Below are positions 2,860 to 45,735 of a DNA stretch of 64,000 bases, piece after piece. Location: the NCBI GenBank assembly GCA_964535515.1, contig CAZHTA010000005.1, forward strand, positions 13 to 64,012, given 5' to 3'. The translations under genes were made by a program, and so were the position numbers. The stretch is from an uncultured Gammaproteobacteria bacterium. Lineage in GTDB: Bacteria; Patescibacteriota; Patescibacteriia; Magasanikbacterales; GWA2-37-8. The notes below the pieces were generated by a model. The model saw nothing but the letters and a program-made list of their open reading frames with translations. It was not told the origin of the DNA and ran no database searches. Position 1 is the first letter of the stretch. Every line of letters starts with the position of its first letter.

Positions 2860-2888
2860 TTGACAGAAGTGAGTTTTTTTAGTATAGT
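2860..2888 (+). promoter_or_regulatory. sigma70-like promoter TTGACA-17-TATAGT driving GC-rich ORF
   Basis: ttgaca(2860-2865) 17-nt spacer tatagt(2883-2888); AAGGAGG RBS at 2950-2956 before ATG 2961. Confidence 0.55.
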
Positions 2889-2960
2889 GAGCTGTTCTAC
2901 CCGTGGGGATGGGTGGACATCACGCGACTGGAGTATATCCAGCGCTAGCAAGGAGGAGGC

Positions 2961-3896
2961 ATGAAACTCAGAGAGATTCTGGTGGTCGAAGGGCTTACCA
3001 GGAACATGGGCGAACTTCTCTCGTCGGTGGTCGAGGCCGTGTCGGCTATCGGCTACCTCGAGGGCATGCGGCTGGTCATCGAAGAGTACAAGCCGGCTGC
3101 TGCCAAGCGCCAGCCGCTGGATGGCGTAAACGTGTCGGAAGAGTCGGTCAGGGCCTTTCGCGCCTTTTCGGGTGCTATGACCGCGCTTGCCGAGGGATGC
3201 CACATTCCCGTGGTGCAGGCCCTGTACCTGCACGATGCGGCGAGTGGACTCAGCCGGGGCAACGGCAACCTGCCCGACCAGCAGGTTGAGCTGAATCGGC
3301 ACGCTCTGCTCGTTCTCGGTGGTGTCTCTAGCGTTCTGCGTGGGGACGACTGGTGGTGCGTCTACGAGAAAGTGATGGTCGGCCTCATGGAGGCCGGGCA
3401 CGTCGCTTTCAATGAAGACGTCTTCCGGTCGATCATCGAGTCCATGAAGAAGAACCACGCCAAGGATGCGGCTGGTCGCCAGGCTCATCTGGCCGAGCGG
3501 CTCGCCGAGCAGGATCGCCTAGACGAGGCGATCGAAGTGCTCGCGTCGGTGGAGGGCGACACGTACTCCGCTCCGAACCAGCGTGGGTATGCGCTCGGGC
3601 TCCTGGAGAGGTACAGAGCCGTCGCCGTTACTCGGCGTGGTACGGGCACCTCGCGTGAGCGTCGCGCTCCGTCTCGTCGCAAGAAGGGCAGCGGTGCGAC
3701 CAAGGAAGGCGATCCCGAGCCACCACCAATAATCCGTCATCGCGCTTGGTACGGCACGATTGGCGGTACGTTCATTAGTACTAGGAGGGATAACGTCGTG
3801 GTCCCCACCCACGACTTACTCCAAAAGAGCATCAAATTATTGGTGCTTTTTTGTTTGTTTTTTTTATTTAAAAATGGTATATTATTCCTACTATGA
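2961..3896 (+). CDS. hypothetical protein encoded in GC-rich foreign-like cassette; 3' end appears truncated and reads through into AT-rich backbone/terminator
   Basis: High GC3 codon bias in this frame, canonical SD+ATG; C-terminal 25 aa (LLQKSIKLLVLFCLFFLFKNGILFLL) are translated from AT-rich terminator/promoter sequence. Confidence 0.5.
   Translation: MKLREILVVEGLTRNMGELLSSVVEAVSAIGYLEGMRLVIEEYKPAAAKRQPLDGVNVSEESVRAFRAFSGAMTALAEGCHIPVVQALYLHDAASGLSRGNGNLPDQQVELNRHALLVLGGVSSVLRGDDWWCVYEKVMVGLMEAGHVAFNEDVFRSIIESMKKNHAKDAAGRQAHLAERLAEQDRLDEAIEVLASVEGDTYSAPNQRGYALGLLERYRAVAVTRRGTGTSRERRAPSRRKKGSGATKEGDPEPPPIIRHRAWYGTIGGTFISTRRDNVVVPTHDLLQKSIKLLVLFCLFFLFKNGILFLL
3826..3852 (+). terminator. Rho-independent terminator downstream of GC-rich cassette
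   Basis: agagcatcaa-attat-tggtgct hairpin (one G-U) followed by T-run. Confidence 0.6.
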
Positions 3897-7796: not shown

Positions 7797-9533
7797 ATGA
7801 ACTTAAGTTTTTTACGTACTAAAAAATTCTACCTGATTTTGGGTGGAGTAATTATTGTCGGTTTAATCGGTTGGAATTCTTATCGTAAAGCCAATATGCC
7901 GGTGGAATACGAAACGGTTAAAGTTGAGCGTGGTAATTTGGTACAAACTGTTGAAGTGACTGGTAAGATTGAATCAGTAACCGACCTATCATTACGATTT
8001 GAAATACCAGGTACAGTTGATGCGATAAAGGTAACAGAAAATACTCAAGTAAAAGCAGGTGATTGGTTGGCTAACTTACGTTTAGCAGAATTAAATGCAG
8101 CAGTGGCTCAAGCTAGTGCTAATTTGAATCAAAAGTTGGCAGGTCCGTCGACTGAGGATCGAAGTTACTACAAAGCAGCAGTTGATTCAGCTCGTTCTTC
8201 TTTAGAGCAAACACGTATAGACGCACAGTCTACTATTACTGCCGCGGAAGCTGTTTTAGAGACGGCAAAGAATAATTTAAAATTTGCTGAAGGAGGAGAG
8301 AATAGTCAGATTGTAAACAATGCCTATGACTCCGCCGTAGCGACCTTACAAACAGCTTTGGGCACAATCGATAGTGGTCTTACACAGGCTGATAATATTT
8401 TGGGAGTTGATAGTACTTTGGCTAACGATAGTTTTGAGTCGTATTTGTCAATTCTAGATAGTTCTAAGTTGTCATTTGCTAAAACAAACTATCTCATTGC
8501 CAAATCAGCGCGTGATCAAGTTAGACCTTTAATACTTGCTTTAACTACTGGTAATGATCGAGCAAAAGTTGATAGTGCATTGCCGTTGGCTGAGACAGCG
8601 CTTTCAAAAAATATTACTTTGTTGTCATCGGTTGGTGAGGTATTAACTGCTACTCCGCCAGTTGGTACTTTAACCCAAGCTGTGTTAGATGGACACAAAA
8701 CAACAATTGATGCCGCTCGTACTGCCGCTACCACTCAATATACCAGTGTGATTGTTAGGCGTCAGGCAGTGGCGGATTCAAAAAATAGCTATTCCACATA
8801 TTTGGTAGCATACAATAAAGCAGAAAAAGATTTGTTAAGCGCACAAGATAACGCTAATAATCTGATTGCTTTAAAACAGGCAGTATATGATCAAGCAGTT
8901 GCTAGTTTTGATAGCAAAGTTAATCCACCTCGTGAAATTGATGTGGCTGCTTACCGTGCCATTCTCGCATCGGCGGTGGCTAATCGCGACAAAGCGATTA
9001 TTCGCGCTCCGATTGATGGGTTGGTGACTAAAGTTAACAAGAAAAAAGGTGAATATATTTCTGGTGCGGAAACAATGATTCAATTGTTGTCACCGCATTA
9101 TGAAATTAAAGTGGACATTCCAGAAACTGATATTCCAAAGTTAAAATTGAATGATGCCGCTAAAATTACTTTAGATGCTTTTGGTAAAGATGTTAAATTT
9201 TCTGGGAAAATTGTAAATATTGAACCAGCTTCAACTGAAATTCAGGATGTTGTATATTACAAAGTCACCATTACATTAGACGATACTGAACAGGCGATTA
9301 AACCAGGTATGACAGCAAATGTTACGATTACTACTGCGACACGTGAGAATGTTTTGTTCATCCCGTATCGTACCGTTAAAATTAACGGAGAAAAAACTGT
9401 CCGAGTATTAGAAAACAATCAACCTAAGGATACAGTGGTTAGTATTGGTTTGCGCGCTGATGAAGGGAAGGCCGAAGTGTTGTCCGGTTTAAATGAAGGG
9501 CAAGTTGTTGTGGTGAGTGTAAAAACAAAGTAA
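7797..9533 (+). CDS. HlyD-family periplasmic adaptor (membrane fusion protein) with long coiled coil
   Basis: N-terminal TM, biotinyl-lipoyl-like half domains, Ala/Gln-rich coiled coil, C-terminal beta-barrel; followed by MacB-like ABC genes. Confidence 0.7.
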   Translation: MNLSFLRTKKFYLILGGVIIVGLIGWNSYRKANMPVEYETVKVERGNLVQTVEVTGKIESVTDLSLRFEIPGTVDAIKVTENTQVKAGDWLANLRLAELNAAVAQASANLNQKLAGPSTEDRSYYKAAVDSARSSLEQTRIDAQSTITAAEAVLETAKNNLKFAEGGENSQIVNNAYDSAVATLQTALGTIDSGLTQADNILGVDSTLANDSFESYLSILDSSKLSFAKTNYLIAKSARDQVRPLILALTTGNDRAKVDSALPLAETALSKNITLLSSVGEVLTATPPVGTLTQAVLDGHKTTIDAARTAATTQYTSVIVRRQAVADSKNSYSTYLVAYNKAEKDLLSAQDNANNLIALKQAVYDQAVASFDSKVNPPREIDVAAYRAILASAVANRDKAIIRAPIDGLVTKVNKKKGEYISGAETMIQLLSPHYEIKVDIPETDIPKLKLNDAAKITLDAFGKDVKFSGKIVNIEPASTEIQDVVYYKVTITLDDTEQAIKPGMTANVTITTATRENVLFIPYRTVKINGEKTVRVLENNQPKDTVVSIGLRADEGKAEVLSGLNEGQVVVVSVKTK

Positions 9534-9865
9534 TACTAAAAAGTAAATTAAAAAAACAAAAAATCCCTTTGGTTAAGGAATTGTATGATGAATGGGCACC
9601 AGGAGGAGAAGTGGTGCCAGTGTTCGGACCGCGTCCGATTAATGAGCTAGGCCGGTTTTTCGCCCGCGCGCTAGACACTCAAACACTGACACCACGACTC
9701 CTCTGGTGGTGAGAGAAGAGACTGTGTGTGTAGAAGGGCTTTCCTTCAGGGGGATAACGTATGCGACCGTCATCCACTACTACACGCAGATCTTCCTTCT
9801 CTCAAGCGGGAGCATCTCGACGCGGTTTGGGCATGGGCCGTCTGCGCGTAGGAAGATCTCCCGAG

Positions 9866-9913
9866 TCTGGGAACATGGGGATTTGAACCCCATGAATTCG
9901 TCGATGTTCCCAG
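9866..9913 (-). ncRNA. tRNA-like minihelix (8-bp acceptor stem + 12-nt linker + T-arm GGGGUUCAAAUCCCC, no D or anticodon arm)
   Basis: Minus strand CUGGGAAC-AUCGACGAAUUC-AUGGGGUUCAAAUCCCCAU-GUUCCCAG-A folds as acceptor/T-arm coaxial stack. Confidence 0.3.
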
Positions 9914-9925
9914 GAAAGAATAAGG

Positions 9926-9999
9926 AGCGGGAGACTGGAATTGAACCAGTGGCCTCCACCCTAGCAGGATGGCACTCTGTTTCTCTGAGCTACTCCCGC
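9926..9999 (-). tRNA. atypical tRNA-like gene (anticodon GCU, short variable arm, D-loop lacking GG) - possibly pseudo-tRNA or non-canonical tRNA
   Basis: Manual fold: acceptor GCGGGAG/CUCCCGC, anticodon stem CCAUC/GGUGG loop CUGCUAG, T-arm ACUGG-UUCAAUU-CCAGU; D-loop AGAGAAACA unusual. Confidence 0.45.
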
Positions 10000-10071
10000 G
10001 AAAGTAGTTAAATACTATCAAATATATTAAAAATGTAAAGATTGTGTTGTGGATAAGTAAAATCAATTATT

Positions 10072-19013: not shown

Positions 19014-19069
19014 AAAACCACCTCCCTTAAGCGACAATGTCTTATCATTTAAGGGAGTCGGGTGGTTTT
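19014..19069 (-). terminator. hairpin terminator downstream of GC-rich cassette 2
   Basis: aaaaccacctcccttaa ... ttaagggag-tcg-ggtggtttt imperfect inverted repeat followed (minus strand) by A/T run. Confidence 0.45.
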
Positions 19070-19156
19070 GAGAATCACGCCCGACATAAGGCAGGTGTGA
19101 TTGTTGGGAAAGGGCAATGGCCTTGGGTTGGGTAGGGCGGAGTAGCCGTCGTGGGT

Positions 19157-19582
19157 CTAGTCGTCCAGCGTGCCCGGTCTGTCGAGCGGAGCGTAGAGAC
19201 CCAGTATGGAGCACTTGAAATCGGGGTCGTCGGGCGGGTTTTGCCCGAAAGCGCTGCGCATCTCGCGCTCTGGGCTCTGGCCGAATGCTCCGGGCCAGTA
19301 CTCGGCCGGAACGCTCAGAGCGCCTTCACGGAAGAAAAGGCGCACGTGACCTTTCATGTCTTCGGATAGGTTGTCCCACGCCGCCTGGTCCGTATCCGCG
19401 AGGGCGGATTCTTCCAGGAGGTGCTCGAGCAGAACCGGAGGCGTCTGCTTTTGCCTTTCTGCCCACTCACGCGCTCGTGCCTTGCTAAAGAACGGGGTGG
19501 TGTAGATATGGTCGCCGTTGAAGAAGCGTCCGTGAGTCGGCAGCACTCCGCATTTGCAGAGTCTGAACGTAATGTCTGCCAT
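19157..19582 (-). CDS. hypothetical protein in GC-rich foreign-like cassette 2
   Basis: 141 aa, strong GC3 bias in this frame, AAGGAGG RBS 6 nt upstream of ATG, no recognisable domain. Confidence 0.5.
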   Translation of the reverse strand: MADITFRLCKCGVLPTHGRFFNGDHIYTTPFFSKARAREWAERQKQTPPVLLEHLLEESALADTDQAAWDNLSEDMKGHVRLFFREGALSVPAEYWPGAFGQSPEREMRSAFGQNPPDDPDFKCSILGLYAPLDRPGTLDD

Positions 19583-19750
19583 CGGTTCCTCCTTACTTAC
19601 CCAGTTGGTTGTCGCCTGTTATAGAGCCTAACACAGGGTGGTATTTTGTTCAAGATGCTTAGTGTTTATGTCTTGTTTTGCGATTTGTAGTTTTTTAATA
19701 TAGGGAGTACAATATATGACAATTAATTATTGCTGTTATTTTAAATAACA

Positions 19751-23018: not shown

Positions 23019-23420
23019 ATGGAACCAGAAAAATTTAAGATTTGGTGGGATCAAGATTTAGGTGTTTGTCATGTTGTTTTGTTTGGAGCGCAAGACGAGG
23101 ATAGTGCTCTGTTGGCGGTAGAAAAGGAACAAGAGATGATGGATTTTTTTAGAGAGAACGAAATATCTGATGTTGGCGTTCTTTTTGATATTCGTGAAGC
23201 AGGTAAAGCAACCAAACAGGCTAAAGAAATATTTGCTACATATTTAAAAAAGATAGGAAAAGAATTTCCAGGAGTTCGTATTGCTTATGTAGGAGGGCCA
23301 AGAATTGCTGTTTTGGCCACTTTGTTTATTCACAAGATTGGTGGTATGCGCGGGGCGATTAAATTTTTTAATGATGATGTTCCGGCTTTAAAGTGGCTTA
23401 GTAAAACTCGCATTACGTAG
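23019..23420 (+). CDS. hypothetical protein
   Basis: 133 aa ORF with AT-rich codon usage consistent with backbone; no motif recognised. Confidence 0.45.
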   Translation: MEPEKFKIWWDQDLGVCHVVLFGAQDEDSALLAVEKEQEMMDFFRENEISDVGVLFDIREAGKATKQAKEIFATYLKKIGKEFPGVRIAYVGGPRIAVLATLFIHKIGGMRGAIKFFNDDVPALKWLSKTRIT

Positions 23421-23432
23421 TTAGAGTAAACA

Positions 23433-23502
23433 AAAAAATTGTCCAATCTCCTTGATTTAATTCCAAATTATTTTAGAAGTAAATCATGGTGGACAATTTT
23501 TT
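23433..23502. repeat. palindromic element A: 13-bp terminal inverted repeats AAAAAATTGTCCA/TGGACAATTTTTT flanking 44-nt core containing CTCCTTGATTTAATTC
   Basis: Perfect 13-bp inverted repeat; homologous in architecture and core motif to element at 24074-24144. Confidence 0.6.
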
Positions 23503-23601
23503 GTATTCCTCCTATCATCCCTCCCGTTTTCCCGGGAGGATCAGGTGTGTGTTCGGGTGTGGGGTGGATTGCGACAGAATCGTCGCTCTTGGGGGGGGTA
23601 G

Positions 23602-23970
23602 CTAAGGCTTGGCGGCGTTGACCTCGGCGTTGACCTCCTGCATCCACTGCCCGATGACGGTGAGGGTGACGCCGGTCGAGGTGAGCTTGTTGATCACCAC
23701 CGACATTCCGAAGAGCACGATCGTTTCGGGAGCGAAGCCCTCAGCGTCGCCGTTGGCCCGGGAGTGGTCGAGAACCTCCCGGTAGGTGCCCTTGAAGAGG
23801 TCCTCTTCCGACTGGGACGGCACCCGCAGGTTGCCCACCTCCGTGGGCAAGATGTTGCCGCACTTCGTGCACATGACGACGTATCCGTTTCCGGATTCGC
23901 CGCGCATGACCTTGTGCAGGTGGTTGCACACGCACTCTGGACACCACGCGCTACGCATGAAGAGATACAT
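23602..23970 (-). CDS. zinc-ribbon protein in GC-rich foreign-like cassette 3
   Basis: 122 aa, N-terminal CPEC...CTKC zinc-ribbon, high GC3, promoter-like TTGACA with flanking direct repeats upstream. Confidence 0.5.
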   Translation of the reverse strand: MYLFMRSAWCPECVCNHLHKVMRGESGNGYVVMCTKCGNILPTEVGNLRVPSQSEEDLFKGTYREVLDHSRANGDAEGFAPETIVLFGMSVVINKLTSTGVTLTVIGQWMQEVNAEVNAAKP

Positions 23971-24015
23971 GGTGGGGCATCCCCCGATTTGTTGGTCCGT
24001 AATTTTTTAATCACT

Positions 24016-24042
24016 ATTACAGGAGATTGTCAATATTACAGG
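24016..24042. promoter_or_regulatory. direct repeats TATTACAGG x2 bracketing a minus-strand TTGACA -35 hexamer (candidate operator of zinc-ribbon gene)
   Basis: tattacagg agattgtcaa tattacagg on plus strand; reverse complement gives cctgtaata-TTGACA-atctcctgtaata. Confidence 0.4.
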
Positions 24043-24073
24043 TAATTTTTAAATAAATAATTATTAAAACAAA

Positions 24074-24144
24074 AAACAGTCCATAAACCTCCTTGATTAA
24101 TTCTCAACTTTTATATTAAGAATTAATGTTGGGATGGACTGTTT
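24074..24144. repeat. palindromic element B: 11-bp terminal inverted repeats AAACAGTCCAT/ATGGACTGTTT with nested inner hairpin and CCTCCTTGATTAATTC core
   Basis: Same architecture and core motif as element A; inner inverted repeat ATTAATTCT/AGAATTAAT. Confidence 0.6.
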
Positions 24145-24527
24145 GATGTTCGCGCCGATCCGTGCCTGGGAGTCCGTGCTCCCAGGACTTATTCAATGCT
24201 GCCTATTCGGCAACAACTGGGGGTGGAAGATGGGCGATCTCGTCCATCATATCCAGGTAGATGTGAAGAAGCAGTGACTTCTCCGGCGGACGGGGGCTTT
24301 CGATGCCTCGAATCTTGTCCAAGAACTCCAACTTCGTCATCCTTGTTTCCGACGCGGTTGTTTAATTAAATAGTACACCTTTAAGAGTCGATTGACAATA
24401 ATAAAGTTCGAACCCCTCCCGCCCTCAACCAAAATCACCCACACCGCTTGGAATTGGCAAACTTATTTCGGCTCTAATATCAGCAGAAAACAAAAGAACC
24501 TCGAACATGATTCGAGATTCCATCTTG

Positions 24528-24600
<73 letters not shown>

Positions 24601-28917: not shown

Positions 28918-28935
28918 CAATTTAGTAAACAAAAA

Positions 28936-28975
28936 AACTACTCCACTTGGGAATAGTTTTTTATTTTTTTTCGCA
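28936..28975 (+). terminator. terminator hairpin with long T-run after tRNA-Gly
   Basis: aaactactcc-acttg-ggaatagttt (one mismatch) followed by ttttttattttttttc. Confidence 0.55.
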
Positions 28976-29132
28976 AAACCGTCTTCGTCAAAAGACAAAA
29001 ATCTTCTGACGGAGCGGGCGGTCTTGCGACAGCCTCAACTCCGTTGGGGGAGTTGTGACTTTGGAAAGAACAACCGGGTAGGAGGGGGGGGTGGACTGGG
29101 AGGCAACTCTATTTGACCGCTACGGCCTCGAT

Positions 29133-29483
29133 CTAGACGATCAGCGTGGTGCCGACGGAGCGGGGGTCGCGGATTTTCCGCACCCTACCTTCCTTGCTGG
29201 TGGCGACGAAGGTGTACGGGCTGGTCCAGGTCCAGACGACCTGGAAGAGGCTCCCTGTCGGCGCCTGTTGGGCGAAGCACATGATGCCGCTGTCCTTACC
29301 GTCGGTCCTGGGGACCAACAGGTCGCCGTCGCGAACGAGCCGGATGTAGGTCTTGAGCTGCGGTCCCGACTCCGGCGAGCTGGGCTTCCGGCTCGTGCGG
29401 AAGAAGGTCACGTCGGGCGGCAGCTTGAACAGGGCGCCCTTTTGGAACGGGAACGACGAGGTCGGGGTCGGTTGGTCGGACAT
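29133..29483 (-). CDS. hypothetical protein in GC-rich foreign-like cassette 4
   Basis: 116 aa, high GC3, GGAGGA RBS 5 nt upstream of ATG, minus-strand TTGACA-17-TAATAT promoter at about 29548-29576. Confidence 0.5.
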   Translation of the reverse strand: MSDQPTPTSSFPFQKGALFKLPPDVTFFRTSRKPSSPESGPQLKTYIRLVRDGDLLVPRTDGKDSGIMCFAQQAPTGSLFQVVWTWTSPYTFVATSKEGRVRKIRDPRSVGTTLIV

Positions 29484-29524
29484 GGTAATCCTCCAGAGAT
29501 GCTTGCTCTCACACCAACTGCGGT

Positions 29525-29806
29525 ATGAGTGTTGGTGAGGATATTAATGCTTTTTTTACAATTTGTCAATATTTCCCATTGCGGTTAATGTATTTTTTTG
29601 ATAAAATATTAATGCTTATGAAGACAAAAATAAATCAGAAGCAACAAGAAGAACTACAAAAACTAGAGAAGTGGTTTGATTTGGAGTTAATAAAATTAAA
29701 GAAAAAGCGAATCGAGATTTTAAAGCGTTATGATAAAAAAAGGTCATTGTTGTTTCAGAATAAAATATTAAAACATATTAGTGGTATAAAGACAGAAACA
29801 TATTAA
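29525..29806 (+). CDS. small Lys/Glu-rich coiled-coil protein (true start probably internal Met near 29614)
   Basis: ORF track 93 aa; first third overlaps minus-strand promoter of cassette 4, so a downstream start is more plausible. Confidence 0.4.
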   Translation: MSVGEDINAFFTICQYFPLRLMYFFDKILMLMKTKINQKQQEELQKLEKWFDLELIKLKKKRIEILKRYDKKRSLLFQNKILKHISGIKTETY

Positions 29807-41468: not shown

Positions 41469-41582
41469 CATTTAAAATTTCGCTTAATAGCGGAGTTTTT
41501 TATTTTCCACAAACCCTTGCTTTTTTTGTTGTTTATGATAGGGTTATTAAAGAAATTTGGGAATATATTTCCCTTAATTTGC

Positions 41583-41602
41583 ATTTGCACGCTCGTGCAA
41601 AT
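41583..41602. promoter_or_regulatory. 9-bp perfect inverted repeat ATTTGCACG-ct-CGTGCAAAT adjacent to TTGAC hexamers upstream of pepT (candidate operator)
   Basis: Palindrome seen directly; overlaps putative promoter ttgaccgatatttgaca. Confidence 0.45.
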
Positions 41603-41689
41603 GTTGACCGATATTTGACAATTCATTACGGAAACGGAAGAGGGAGTTAGTGCTAGTGCTGGAGCGAAAACTGTTTGGGGGAGGAATAG

Positions 41690-42943
41690 ATGTTGATTCC
41701 ACGCGAACGCATGCTCGAAAGGTTCATGCGCTACGTGCGCATGGACACCCAGTCGGTTGAGGGAGCGGAGTGCTACCCCTCGACCGAGAAGCAGAAGACC
41801 TTGCTGCGGCTGTTGGTCGACGAACTGAAGGCGCTGGGCCTCGCCGATGCGGCCATGGACGAGTGGGGCTACGTCTTCGCGACGTTGCCGTCGAACTTGC
41901 CGGCCGACCAGGCCGCCAAGTTGCCGGCCATCGGTTTCTTGGCGCACGTCGACACGTCGCCGGAAACGAGCGGCACGGACGTGAAGCCGGTGATCTGGAG
42001 GCACTACGATGCGGGCACCAACCTCGTGTTGCCCGGCGACCATTCCCAGGTGATCACCTGGGACGGTAACCCCGTGCTGCAGCGATACGTCGGGCAGGAC
42101 ATCATCACCAGCGACGGCACCACCCTGCTGAGCGCGGATGATAAGGCGGGCATCGCCGAAATCATGACCGCCATCGAGGTGCTGTTGGCGAATCCTGACA
42201 TCCCGCGCCCCACCATCCGTGTGGCGTTCACGCCCGACGAAGAGGTCGGTATGGGTACTGCCCATTTCGATCTCGCGAAGTTCGGCGTGCAGGCCGCCTA
42301 TACCCTCGACGGCGGCGAAATCGGTGAGGTTGAATGCGAGACATTCAACGCTTACCTCGCGACCTTCACGGTCGTCGGCAACAACTGCCACCCCGGCTAC
42401 GCCAAGGGGAAGATGGTCAACGCCATTCGTCCCATGGCAGCTATCGTCGAGGCCTTGTCCGACCAGCCTGCACCCGAGACCACCGAGGGTCGCCAGGCTT
42501 ACCTGCACCCGTACGATCTCAAGGGTGAAGTTGCCAAGGCTACGCTCAAGGTGCTCATCCGCAGCTTCGATGAAGCAGGTATCGAGTCGCGCAAGATGTT
42601 CCTCGCGGGCGTGCGCGATCGCGTAGCGGCGGCGTTCCCTCAGGCGAACATCGTTCTCGAGATGGTCGAGCAGTACAAGAACATGAAGGTCTACGTGGAT
42701 CAGGATCCGCGTGTCATGGCCTTCGCCACGGAAGCCATCATCAAGGCTGGTCTCCAGCCGATCACACGCGAGATCCGCGGCGGTACGGATGGCTCGAAGT
42801 TGTCCGAGAAAGGACTGCCTTGCCCCAACCTGTTCGCGGGTGGGCACAACTTCCACTCGAAGTTGGAGTTCATCCCGGTGCAGTCTATGGAGAAGGCCGT
42901 GGAGGTCGTGGTCTACCTGGTCGAGCGCTGGGCCAACGCCTGA
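41690..42943 (+). CDS. pepT: peptidase T (tripeptide aminopeptidase, M20B family) in GC-rich foreign-like cassette 5
   Basis: Strong collinear similarity to E. coli PepT recalled from memory (HVDTSP, GADDKAGIAEIM, AFTPDEEVG, IRGGTDG, GLPCPNLF, GGHNFH); high GC3; GGGGGAGG RBS. Confidence 0.8.
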   Translation: MLIPRERMLERFMRYVRMDTQSVEGAECYPSTEKQKTLLRLLVDELKALGLADAAMDEWGYVFATLPSNLPADQAAKLPAIGFLAHVDTSPETSGTDVKPVIWRHYDAGTNLVLPGDHSQVITWDGNPVLQRYVGQDIITSDGTTLLSADDKAGIAEIMTAIEVLLANPDIPRPTIRVAFTPDEEVGMGTAHFDLAKFGVQAAYTLDGGEIGEVECETFNAYLATFTVVGNNCHPGYAKGKMVNAIRPMAAIVEALSDQPAPETTEGRQAYLHPYDLKGEVAKATLKVLIRSFDEAGIESRKMFLAGVRDRVAAAFPQANIVLEMVEQYKNMKVYVDQDPRVMAFATEAIIKAGLQPITREIRGGTDGSKLSEKGLPCPNLFAGGHNFHSKLEFIPVQSMEKAVEVVVYLVERWANA

Positions 42944-43198
42944 TCATCCCGTCTCAGCCGTTTCTGGCTAAACACTTACCACATTGGAGGGAAATGGTGT
43001 GGCACAGTGCGATTCATTCGCCAAGCTATTCCCCTCTAAATGAAGATTTTGATTTAAGTCTTTATTTAGAGGATAGTTTGGAAATATTAATAAGACCATT
43101 TGTATAAATTACGAGTGGTTTTTTATTTATACACATCCTTTGGTTTGGTAGGTTTTCTACTTCTCCTTTTTTGTGATATAATTTAAATACTATCGCTT

Positions 43199-45144: not shown

Positions 45145-45331
45145 TAGCTTAACCAAGCTGTTATTTTTTTATACCTGAATGGGATATTGTGATTATTACA
45201 GTCTCTGTTTAAACAAAAAATCACTTTATAATAAGTGGTTTGATGTTTGTTTAAATGAATCTGTGTGGAACCGGCGCGCCTATCCACACAGAGGCGGAAG
45301 AAGTGCGCCGGGTCCTAGGCCTTGTACGTCG

Positions 45332-45586
45332 TCACGCGGTCTTCTGCTCGGGGTAGTACCCCGTGTCGAACATCGCGTCGATGATGTCCGCCGGCACCAC
45401 GTCCTCCATGCGGATGAACGGTCCCGGCGGTGGGAGGTAGATTCCTCGCTTCCTCTCGAATCCAACAGCCAGGAGGAGGCTGCGGAATTCGTCGCATGCG
45501 GGCACGGGCACCGCCATGTCGTTGACATCGACTGCGATTGCGCCGATAGGATCGTTCGGTTCGAAGAGGTTCGTGGCGTCGTCCAT
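45332..45586 (-). CDS. hypothetical small acidic protein in GC-rich foreign-like cassette 6
   Basis: 84 aa from MDDATNLFEP; high GC3; TGGAGG RBS 6 nt upstream; hairpin ctgtgtgga...ccacacag just after stop. Confidence 0.45.
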   Translation of the reverse strand: MDDATNLFEPNDPIGAIAVDVNDMAVPVPACDEFRSLLLAVGFERKRGIYLPPPGPFIRMEDVVPADIIDAMFDTGYYPEQKTA

Positions 45587-45735
45587 GACACCCTCCAAAA
45601 AAGTTACTAATAGTAGACTGTCATATTTTATCAACAAAGTCAATATTTAGTCTAATAATTTTATTGTTTTCCATGGTGTGGAATGGTGTAAGTAAGGTTG
45701 CTTTAAACCTTGTTTTTTGTTAAAATATTAATACT

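Follow-up and report, generated by a model that had tools for sequence, protein, structure and literature searches.

Two tandem GC-rich gene cassettes beside tRNA-Lys in a Magasanikbacteria genome, with palindromic elements that are probably their extended intrinsic terminators

In the definition reportedly given by Hendrix and Juhala, a moron is a gene that is inserted between two others, deviates in base composition, and brings its own promoter and terminator. Palindromes at the 3′ ends of genes are known from two further systems: intrinsic terminators, which in canonical form have a stem of 5-14 bp and a loop of 3-8 nt, and integron cassettes, whose attC sites span 57-141 nt. Here we describe a locus that recalls all of these in a 64-kb stretch of DNA (the window) from a Magasanikbacteria genome of the Candidate Phyla Radiation (CPR; Patescibacteria). 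At positions 23433-24400, two small GC-rich genes and two related palindromic elements, A (23433-23502) and B (24074-24144), lie on the minus strand between a resident gene and the gene for tRNA-Lys. An earlier reading made from the letters alone (the sequence-only reading) had A and B bracket one of these genes, a 122-aa zinc-ribbon open reading frame (ORF), and likened them to cassette-boundary sites, miniature inverted-repeat transposable elements (MITEs), or riboregulators. Our analysis favors two tandem, independent, moron-like cassettes, each composed of promoter, gene, and terminator, with A and B as their extended intrinsic terminators. We put the probability of this reading at roughly 60%.

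Both genes stand out by their composition. The GC content of the window is 38.5%, whereas the two blocks of the studied region (23503-23995 and 24145-24360) have sharp edges and GC contents of 60-63% and ~50%. The larger gene (23602-23970, minus strand, 62% GC) encodes a 122-aa protein with a zinc ribbon (CxxC-x20-CxxC) and a helical part. Because its GC content by codon position is 0.56/0.41/0.89, it is real coding sequence, and its third-position value (GC3) compares with ~0.3 in resident genes. The convergent resident gene that borders the cassettes (23019-23420, plus strand, 133 aa, weak match to DUF7793) has a GC3 of 0.28. The 45-aa ORF that had been pointed out in the second block (24203-24340, minus strand) exists and has values of 0.61/0.30/0.67; with this moderate periodicity it is plausibly coding. 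A homologue search with it gave no match. Overlapping ORFs in other frames of the GC-rich islands of the window lack the codon-position GC pattern.

On the minus strand, the features run from tRNA-Lys and its short terminator through a promoter, the 45-aa ORF, its 3′ untranslated region (UTR), and B to an AT-rich spacer, a second promoter, the zinc-ribbon ORF, its 3′ UTR, A, and the end of the resident gene. Given this order, A and B each close a transcription unit, and the zinc-ribbon gene appears bracketed because two cassettes stand in tandem, each with its own 3′ hairpin and U-tract. The tRNA-Lys(UUU) gene (24527-24600, minus strand; short terminator at 24495-24521) is a conserved anchor beside them. 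A promoter scan placed the promoter-like sequence TTGTCA-17-TACTAT, accompanied by a Shine-Dalgarno (SD) sequence (AAGGA), upstream of the 45-aa ORF (24341-24398, minus strand). The GC-rich 3′ UTR of this ORF (24145-24202, minus strand) contains the hairpin CCTGGGAG-CACGGA-CTCCCAGG at 24165-24186. The 5′ UTR and promoter-like region of the zinc-ribbon gene (23971-24042, minus strand) include an SD-like GGGGG hairpin and TTGACA (24028-24033)-N14-TGaTTAAAA, with the -10 element at 24005-24010; this promoter was recognized by eye and did not appear among the calls of the consensus promoter scan. The GC-rich and C-rich 3′ UTR (23503-23601, minus strand) carries two GGAGG motifs and the hairpins GCGACGATTCTGTCGC (23571-23586) and CCTCCCG-GGAAAA-CGGGAGG (23520-23539). 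Each cassette thus has promoter-like and terminator-like signals of its own by match to sequence consensus, and the earlier idea of cassettes holds in the form of discrete GC-rich units with their own expression signals.

The two palindromes are homologous and share an architecture. Element A, which starts 13 nt past the stop codon of the resident gene, has perfect 13-bp arms (AAAAAATTGTCCA and TGGACAATTTTTT) that are 44 nt apart, and element B has perfect 11-bp arms (AAACAGTCCAT and ATGGACTGTTT) that are 49 nt apart. Nested within each is an AT-rich inner stem of 9-14 bp (13-14 bp in B), and both contain the motif CTCCTTGATT(T)AATTC. They have identical orientation, are ~70% alike, and lie 640 bp apart with the zinc-ribbon ORF between them. 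The sequence-only reading had described this shared architecture, the orientation, and the flanking position correctly. The outer stems of A and B differ by two compensatory changes beside a common GUCCA/UGGAC core (U-A and U-A in A versus C-G and A-U in B).

Folding of both strands had been proposed as a check on the palindromes, and it revealed strong hairpins, with the minus strand folding better than the plus strand. As minus-strand RNA, A reached -28.6 kcal/mol (z = -6.4) and B reached -31.5 kcal/mol (z = -7.1), and none of 200 shuffled sequences was as stable; the plus-strand values were weaker, at -24.3 and -26.0 kcal/mol. Three G.U pairs of the minus-strand RNA are C.A mismatches on the plus strand, which fits a function in the cassette transcripts. 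Each minus-strand stem-loop leads directly into a U-tract: A (-25.8 kcal/mol) is followed by UUUUUUUGUUU, with U7GUUU, and B (-26.1 kcal/mol) by UUUUUUGUUUU, with U6GUUUU. Both elements lie downstream of a stop codon, A 100 nt past that of the zinc-ribbon gene and B 59 nt past that of the 45-aa ORF. From these features, the palindromes are probably long intrinsic terminators of the cassettes. Since an A-tract precedes each hairpin and a U-tract follows it, A and B can work on both strands.

In the mechanism that we propose, both cassettes would have been acquired horizontally from high-GC organisms and settled on the minus strand between the resident gene and tRNA-Lys. Each would consist of an AT-rich sigma70-type promoter and SD sequence, a GC-rich ORF, a GC-rich 3′ UTR, and an AT-rich two-tier hairpin with its U-tract. 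In minus-strand RNA, A and B would most likely serve as Rho-independent terminators and probably also as stabilizers of the 3′ end. On the plus strand, A may also stop transcription of the convergent resident gene, and B may insulate the zinc-ribbon promoter from read-through.

We compared A and B with the other hairpins of the lineage using a covariance model built from A alone, which was run on 712 kb of Magasanikbacteria loci (designated by L numbers) and, unfiltered, on the window. The model recovered B, with E = 1e-4 on the 712 kb and E = 1e-5 on the window. Its next match was a short terminator at 28924-28972, behind tRNA-Gly and one of the GC-rich islands (island 5), in which the frame AAAAAA...TTTTTTTGTTTACT (UUUUUUUGUUUACU) is kept and the inner 42 nt are missing. 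It also matched two long hairpins in L034, the nearest species representative (its Mur ligase is 82% identical to that of the window), and both of these stand behind GC-rich cassettes. With filters off, the remaining matches were ordinary intergenic terminators of the window. We concluded that A and B are likely paralogous, extended variants of the bidirectional terminators of this lineage (AAAAAA-stem...stem-UUUUUUGUUU), to which an inner stem has been added.

The same searches bear on the suggestion that A and B are MITE-like or repetitive extragenic palindromic (REP)-like mobile repeats that landed by chance on both sides of the zinc-ribbon gene. Their size of ~70 nt, terminal inverted repeats of 11-13 bp, and occurrence as two related, closely spaced copies would suit such elements. 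However, neither a motif search nor the unfiltered covariance model found a third copy in the 64-kb window, and a pattern scan of a metagenome collection yielded nine matches that were all unrelated coding sequence. The flanks (gagtaaac|A|gtattcc and ttaaaac|B|gatgttc) show no target-site duplication, and the "terminal inverted repeats" are the A-run, stem, and T-run of the local terminator frame. Further, the ~70% likeness together with the compensatory stem changes is more suggestive of selection acting on the structure than of a recent transposition. We consider mobile repeats quite improbable. The sequence-only reading had itself named a lack of further copies, and elements that are simple terminators, as findings that would speak against it. 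Across the window, the 712 kb of loci, and the metagenome scan, only B, the long hairpins of L034, and ordinary terminators came to light, so that the evidence on both points leans toward refutation, with termination being what we infer.

Long hairpins with A-run and T-run flanks were identified at six places: A, B, and 19014-19069 in the window and 7144, 14525, and 16920 in L034. All six form the 3′ end of GC-rich cassettes. This association could also be expected if A and B were attC-like or single-strand-recombinase hairpin sites that bound an integron-like array, or a cluster of attC sites lacking integron-integrases (CALIN), which captures foreign genes beside tRNA-Lys. In favor of this reading, the locus has a pair of similar, imperfect palindromes (70-80 nt) in one orientation, each at the 3′ end of a small, orphan, compositionally foreign ORF, and the tRNA-linked sites of the window and L034 carry different cassettes. 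The length, bulges, position, and orientation of A and B match those of attC sites; the same features match a terminator. Against it, the recombination core GTTRRRY/RYYYAAC is present on neither strand of A or B, and none of the five core candidates that we read (GTTTACT, GTATTCC, GTTTTAA, GTTTGAT, and GTTCGCG) fits GTTRRRY. No integrase, HUH transposase, or other recombinase was found among the window ORFs checked, 29 by domain scan and the other translations by eye. Each of the two cassettes has a promoter of its own, which typical integron cassettes do not, and the hairpins end in U-tracts within a frame common to ordinary terminators. Moreover, when the island that carries a PepT gene (see below) was compared with L034, its breakpoints lay in AT-rich sequence with no more than ATTTA microhomology and not at a hairpin. 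Cassette-boundary sites of this kind are therefore unlikely.

Several points weigh against extended terminators and recent transfer. Termination and promoter use were read from sequence alone, and a consensus terminator scan did not call A or B. At 66-72 nt, and with the outer arms 44-49 nt apart, the hairpins exceed the canonical size and are atypical of intrinsic terminators. Resident genes have short hairpins with loops of 3-6 nt, so the extra inner stem needs an explanation of its own, and the inner sequence common to A and B (CTCCTTGATTWAATTC, AAGGAG) exceeds structural need. The genome search covered one contig. For neither the zinc-ribbon gene nor the 45-aa gene was a homologue found in a high-GC contig, an odd result if the transfer was recent. 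Finally, GGAGG occurs 10 times in 1,837 nt of cassette 3′ UTRs from the window, L009, L011, L034, and L080, a ~10-fold excess over shuffled sequence (1.0 +/- 1.0). This excess hints at a function beyond termination.

GGAGG is absent from 801 nt of resident 3′ regions, and in the cassettes it is often on the 3′ side of long hairpins, where it is paired with CCNCC. Candidate explanations are a relic of the ribosome-binding site of the next gene in the donor, microhomology used in integration, and a role in mRNA stability; the excess is a small, testable lead. It also bears on the proposal that A and B act as regulatory RNA through a sequestered SD-like AAGGAG(G). Such an RNA might be a riboregulator, a 3′ UTR stabilizer that binds ribosomes (for example, by holding 30S subunits), or a small RNA that pairs with CCUCC-containing cassette leaders. 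Minus-strand RNA is the better folder, and it contains a perfect extended SD sequence (AAGGAGGU in B and AAGGAGAU in A) half-paired in the hairpin. The sequence-only reading had placed the SD-like motif inside the stems; the motif is present on the minus strand (AAGGAGA in A and AAGGAGGTTTATG in B) but lies only partly within them.

What follows this motif does not favor regulation. The ATG of B opens an ORF of only 6 codons, A has no ATG, and the small ORFs behind the SD-like motifs (6-16 codons) are not conserved between the elements. Both elements are located after genes, with B upstream of the next promoter. A search of Rfam at gathering thresholds returned tRNAs only, and the E-value mode added only subthreshold look-alikes of microRNA hairpins; we accordingly rejected a known structured RNA family (riboswitch, small RNA, or leader) for A and B, given that no curated covariance model matched. 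Two copies are too few for a covariation data set, and the GGAGG excess could itself have been carried over from ribosome-binding sites that lay downstream in the donor genomes. The riboregulator-like character ascribed to the elements thus found no support, and we regard a regulatory RNA as doubtful.

A word-indexed search of 5.8 billion clusters matched the zinc-ribbon protein to itself alone, from one contig. HMMER, run exhaustively against 1.8 billion representatives, gave a single true homologue (35% identity over 95 residues; E = 3e-9). The complete ORF of this homologue aligns from end to end, and all four cysteines and two histidines are conserved. The homologue is encoded on the 2.7-kb contig L080, where it forms a 62% GC island in surroundings of ~35% GC; no homologue from a donor lineage was found. 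Its promoter, TTGACA-N14-TGcTTAAAT, shares the form TTGACA-N14-TGnTTAAA with the window cassette. In both cassettes a 3′ UTR hairpin, GCGACGAKTCWGTCGC, lies ~15 nt past the stop codon and is followed by GGAGG motifs and then by an AT-rich hairpin with T6GTTT. This 16-nt hairpin is kept at 14 of 16 positions between the window (23571-23586) and L080 (~2518-2533), the sole homologous cassette, even though the proteins are only 35% identical. An IS3-family transposase gene (462-1708; HTH_Tnp_2 and rve domains) adjoins the homologue on this short AT-rich contig. Pfam gave only a subthreshold match of the zinc-ribbon protein to CPxCG zinc fingers, and a profile search of the PDB matched designed helical proteins only. 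AlphaFold returned a mean predicted local distance difference test (pLDDT) score of 53 from the single sequence, which was too poor for a fold search.

The sequence-only reading had assigned an operator role to direct repeats at the zinc-ribbon promoter. These repeats, CCTGTAATA (TATTACAGG on the plus strand), flank TTGACA at 24015-24023 and 24034-24042, as it had stated. The repeat is real, but on its own it is not above chance: 9-mer repeats within 10-30 nt number 18 in the window versus 8.2 +/- 2.9 in shuffled sequence. In the homologous L080 cassette no operator-like repeat is present. The operator hypothesis was rejected on these two grounds. As a separate observation, the GC-rich cassette promoter of L009 (13295-13345) has direct repeats ACACCTATAA (twice) and CACCTGTAAC around its -35 element, which resemble CCTGTAATA and also ATAGTACACCT at 24371-24381 of the window. 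These similar repeats (ACCTNTAA) may hint at a common operator, but they are only suggestive. Several genomes also have cassette promoters of the form TTGACA/TTGAAC-N17-TAGGCT (or TAGTCT), namely, at 19620-19660 of the window (minus strand), at ~13325-13360 of L009, and at ~330-370 of L013 (minus strand), with TAGGCT/TAGTCT as an unusual common -10 box.

The two cassettes belong to a larger set. The window contains about eight GC-rich islands of 52-62% GC with sharp bounds, all of them intergenic: 2881-3840, 9571-10020, 19041-19640, 23503-23995, 24145-24360, 28960-29540, 41641-43040, and 45230-45620. The units are tiny (0.2-1.7 kb) and mostly adjoin tRNA genes (tRNA-Lys, Gly, Thr, Gln, Pro, and Ser). 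Besides the two studied here, the islands at 2881-3840, 19041-19640, 28960-29540, 41641-43040, and 45230-45620 (55-62% GC) each consist of a high-GC3 ORF with an SD sequence and AT-rich promoter-like and terminator-like flanks, and most of these five adjoin tRNA-Pro, Gly, Thr, or Gln. The ORF at 29133-29483 (minus strand), for instance, has a GC content by codon position of 0.53/0.52/0.91. The cargo is mixed and includes PepT, a MobA-like nucleoside triphosphate transferase, a KGG stress protein, and many orphans. Neighboring genes include those that, from their translations, we take to be DnaG, RpoD, MurG, a Mur ligase, and FtsEX, and related loci assign the genome to Magasanikbacteria. A tRNA-like minihelix (9867-9911, minus strand) with an 8-bp acceptor-like stem and a GGGGTTCAAATCCCC T-arm was noticed just downstream of tRNA-Ser, inside the GC-rich block at 9571-9920; Rfam gave a subthreshold tRNA-like match (mascRNA, E = 0.05).

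Such sharp jumps in composition could arise if reads from a high-GC organism had been joined into the CPR contig, and the exact zinc-ribbon protein is known from only one contig in the searched collection. An assembly chimera, which the sequence-only reading had allowed for, would nevertheless have to place eight blocks in one contig, all of them intergenic. Each short block lies exactly between a resident-type AT-rich promoter-like site and a terminator, and the gene within it is correctly oriented and has an SD sequence. The architecture also recurs in the independent assemblies L034 and L080 and in the orthologous cassette of L007 and L013. We consider a chimera very unlikely.

Units similar to the cassettes are found in L034, L007/L013, L009, and L011. 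The pair L007 (1147-1368, minus strand) and L013 (44-325, minus strand) share an orthologous GC-rich cassette that encodes a small membrane protein and is followed by a GC-rich two-tier hairpin. Because these two genomes have only 76% DNA identity, cassettes can be old and vertically inherited. The GC3 of this cassette is 0.76-0.79, versus 0.38 in the Mur ligase. We dropped the idea that the high GC content is actively maintained; by a rough estimate, these values also fit slow amelioration from ~0.9.

The clearest case of transfer is the PepT island (41473-43128), which includes an M20 peptidase ORF at 41690-42943 with a GC content by codon position of 0.61/0.41/0.83. The best homologues of this peptidase are 68-78% identical; the locations of two of them were looked up, and both sit on 70-72% GC contigs where the chromosomal synteny is conserved. 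In L034, ftsE comes straight after tRNA-Thr, and the PepT gene is absent from that site; the window carries an insertion of ~1.65 kb there, of which AT-rich promoter and terminator sequences form part. The junctions are AT-rich and show only the ATTTA microhomology. The relatives at 70-72% GC and the absence of the gene from L034 therefore demonstrate horizontal acquisition from a high-GC lineage. Acquisition in the same manner is the natural reading for the other GC-rich islands.

Across Magasanikbacteria, the sites around tRNA-Lys, at the junction of tRNA-Gly and tRNA-Thr, and after tRNA-Gln are highly variable. In loci L002-L054, tRNA-Gly and tRNA-Thr are separated by as little as 6 nt and as much as 12.5 kb, and the GC-rich cassettes after tRNA-Gln differ between the window and L034. 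These three sites are insertion hot spots. An integrative island at tRNA-Lys was considered and rejected, as the 3′ end of tRNA-Lys is not repeated in the window and no recombinase was found among the window ORFs checked. Two further observations concern this gene. Between the promoter of the 45-aa cassette and tRNA-Lys, the sequence GTTCGAACCCCTCCCGCCCTCA (24406-24427, plus strand) resembles the part of a GC-rich tRNA from the T-loop to the 3′ end but has no counterpart among the tRNAs of the window; an attachment (att) site or donor DNA may have left it behind as a relic. In L034, part of the tRNA-Lys 3′ end is directly repeated (tggtgatccggctgagattt, 9125-9145) ~85 nt downstream of the gene; this repeat may be a kind of scar from integration into the tRNA gene.

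A bolder interpretation is that the GC-rich units constitute a distinct gene-capture module of CPR bacteria that is installed or exchanged at tRNA-flanked hot spots. Foreign, possibly host-derived, high-GC genes would be given resident-type promoters and long hairpins that sequester an SD-like motif. The hairpin and GGAGG would then be either a recombination or microhomology junction or a dedicated device for the expression and stabilization of badly codon-adapted mRNAs. A circulating cassette lineage fits better than independent random transfers with the finding that the zinc-ribbon family has just two members, each of them such an island in an AT-rich contig, with the promoter layout and 3′ UTR hairpin that they share, and with the different cassettes at the same sites in related genomes. 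For the module as a whole, we hold the probability to be low.

Other sources for the cassettes were sought. Searches of phages and plasmids with tblastn and blastn gave no match to the cassette sequences, and four GC-rich ORFs had no relatives among viral contigs. PHROGs yielded only two marginal matches of unknown function (E = 0.003 and 0.009), and PADLOC yielded none. With none of these searches in support, a phage or plasmid origin was set aside. Exact look-ups of three window proteins returned no copy in other assemblies, and our literature search found no paper on GC-rich, tRNA-linked cassettes of Magasanikbacteria.

If the terminator reading is right, the two palindromes are ordinary in kind, being long variants of the terminators of this organism. 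What would then merit attention is that an ultra-small, AT-rich CPR genome repeatedly keeps small, high-GC foreign genes as self-contained units beside tRNA genes. That PepT can be traced to a lineage of 70% GC bears on how reduced episymbionts acquire genes, possibly from their hosts. The locus also calls for caution in annotation: the islands hold mostly orphan ORFs together with many spurious overlapping ones, and standard terminator finders miss the long hairpins.

Among described systems, integron cassettes and CALIN share with this locus small, mostly orphan ORFs in tandem and in one orientation, with imperfect palindromes at their 3′ ends; they differ in that R′/R″ cores and an integrase are lacking here, whereas own promoters, U-tract ends, and likeness to local terminators are present. 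The cassettes resemble tRNA-linked genomic islands in lying beside the tRNA genes for Lys, Gly, Thr, Gln, Pro, and Ser at sites that vary across Magasanikbacteria, but they are far smaller units, without an integrase or a repeated tRNA-Lys 3′ end in the window. Like intrinsic bidirectional terminators, A and B have a stable hairpin and a U-tract, lie after stop codons and between convergent genes, and have flanks common to other terminators of the genome. Unlike those terminators, they are two-tiered, span 66-72 nt, and contain the SD-like AAGGAG(G), and in the 85 kb of the window and L034 the long form stands only behind foreign GC-rich genes. With phage morons and genomic islets, finally, the cassettes have in common that they are autonomous, intergenic units of deviating composition whose cargo is mostly of unknown function. 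They differ from phage morons in residing in a CPR chromosome rather than in a prophage, in clustering beside tRNA genes, and in combining regulatory parts of the resident, AT-rich type with an ORF and UTRs of foreign composition.

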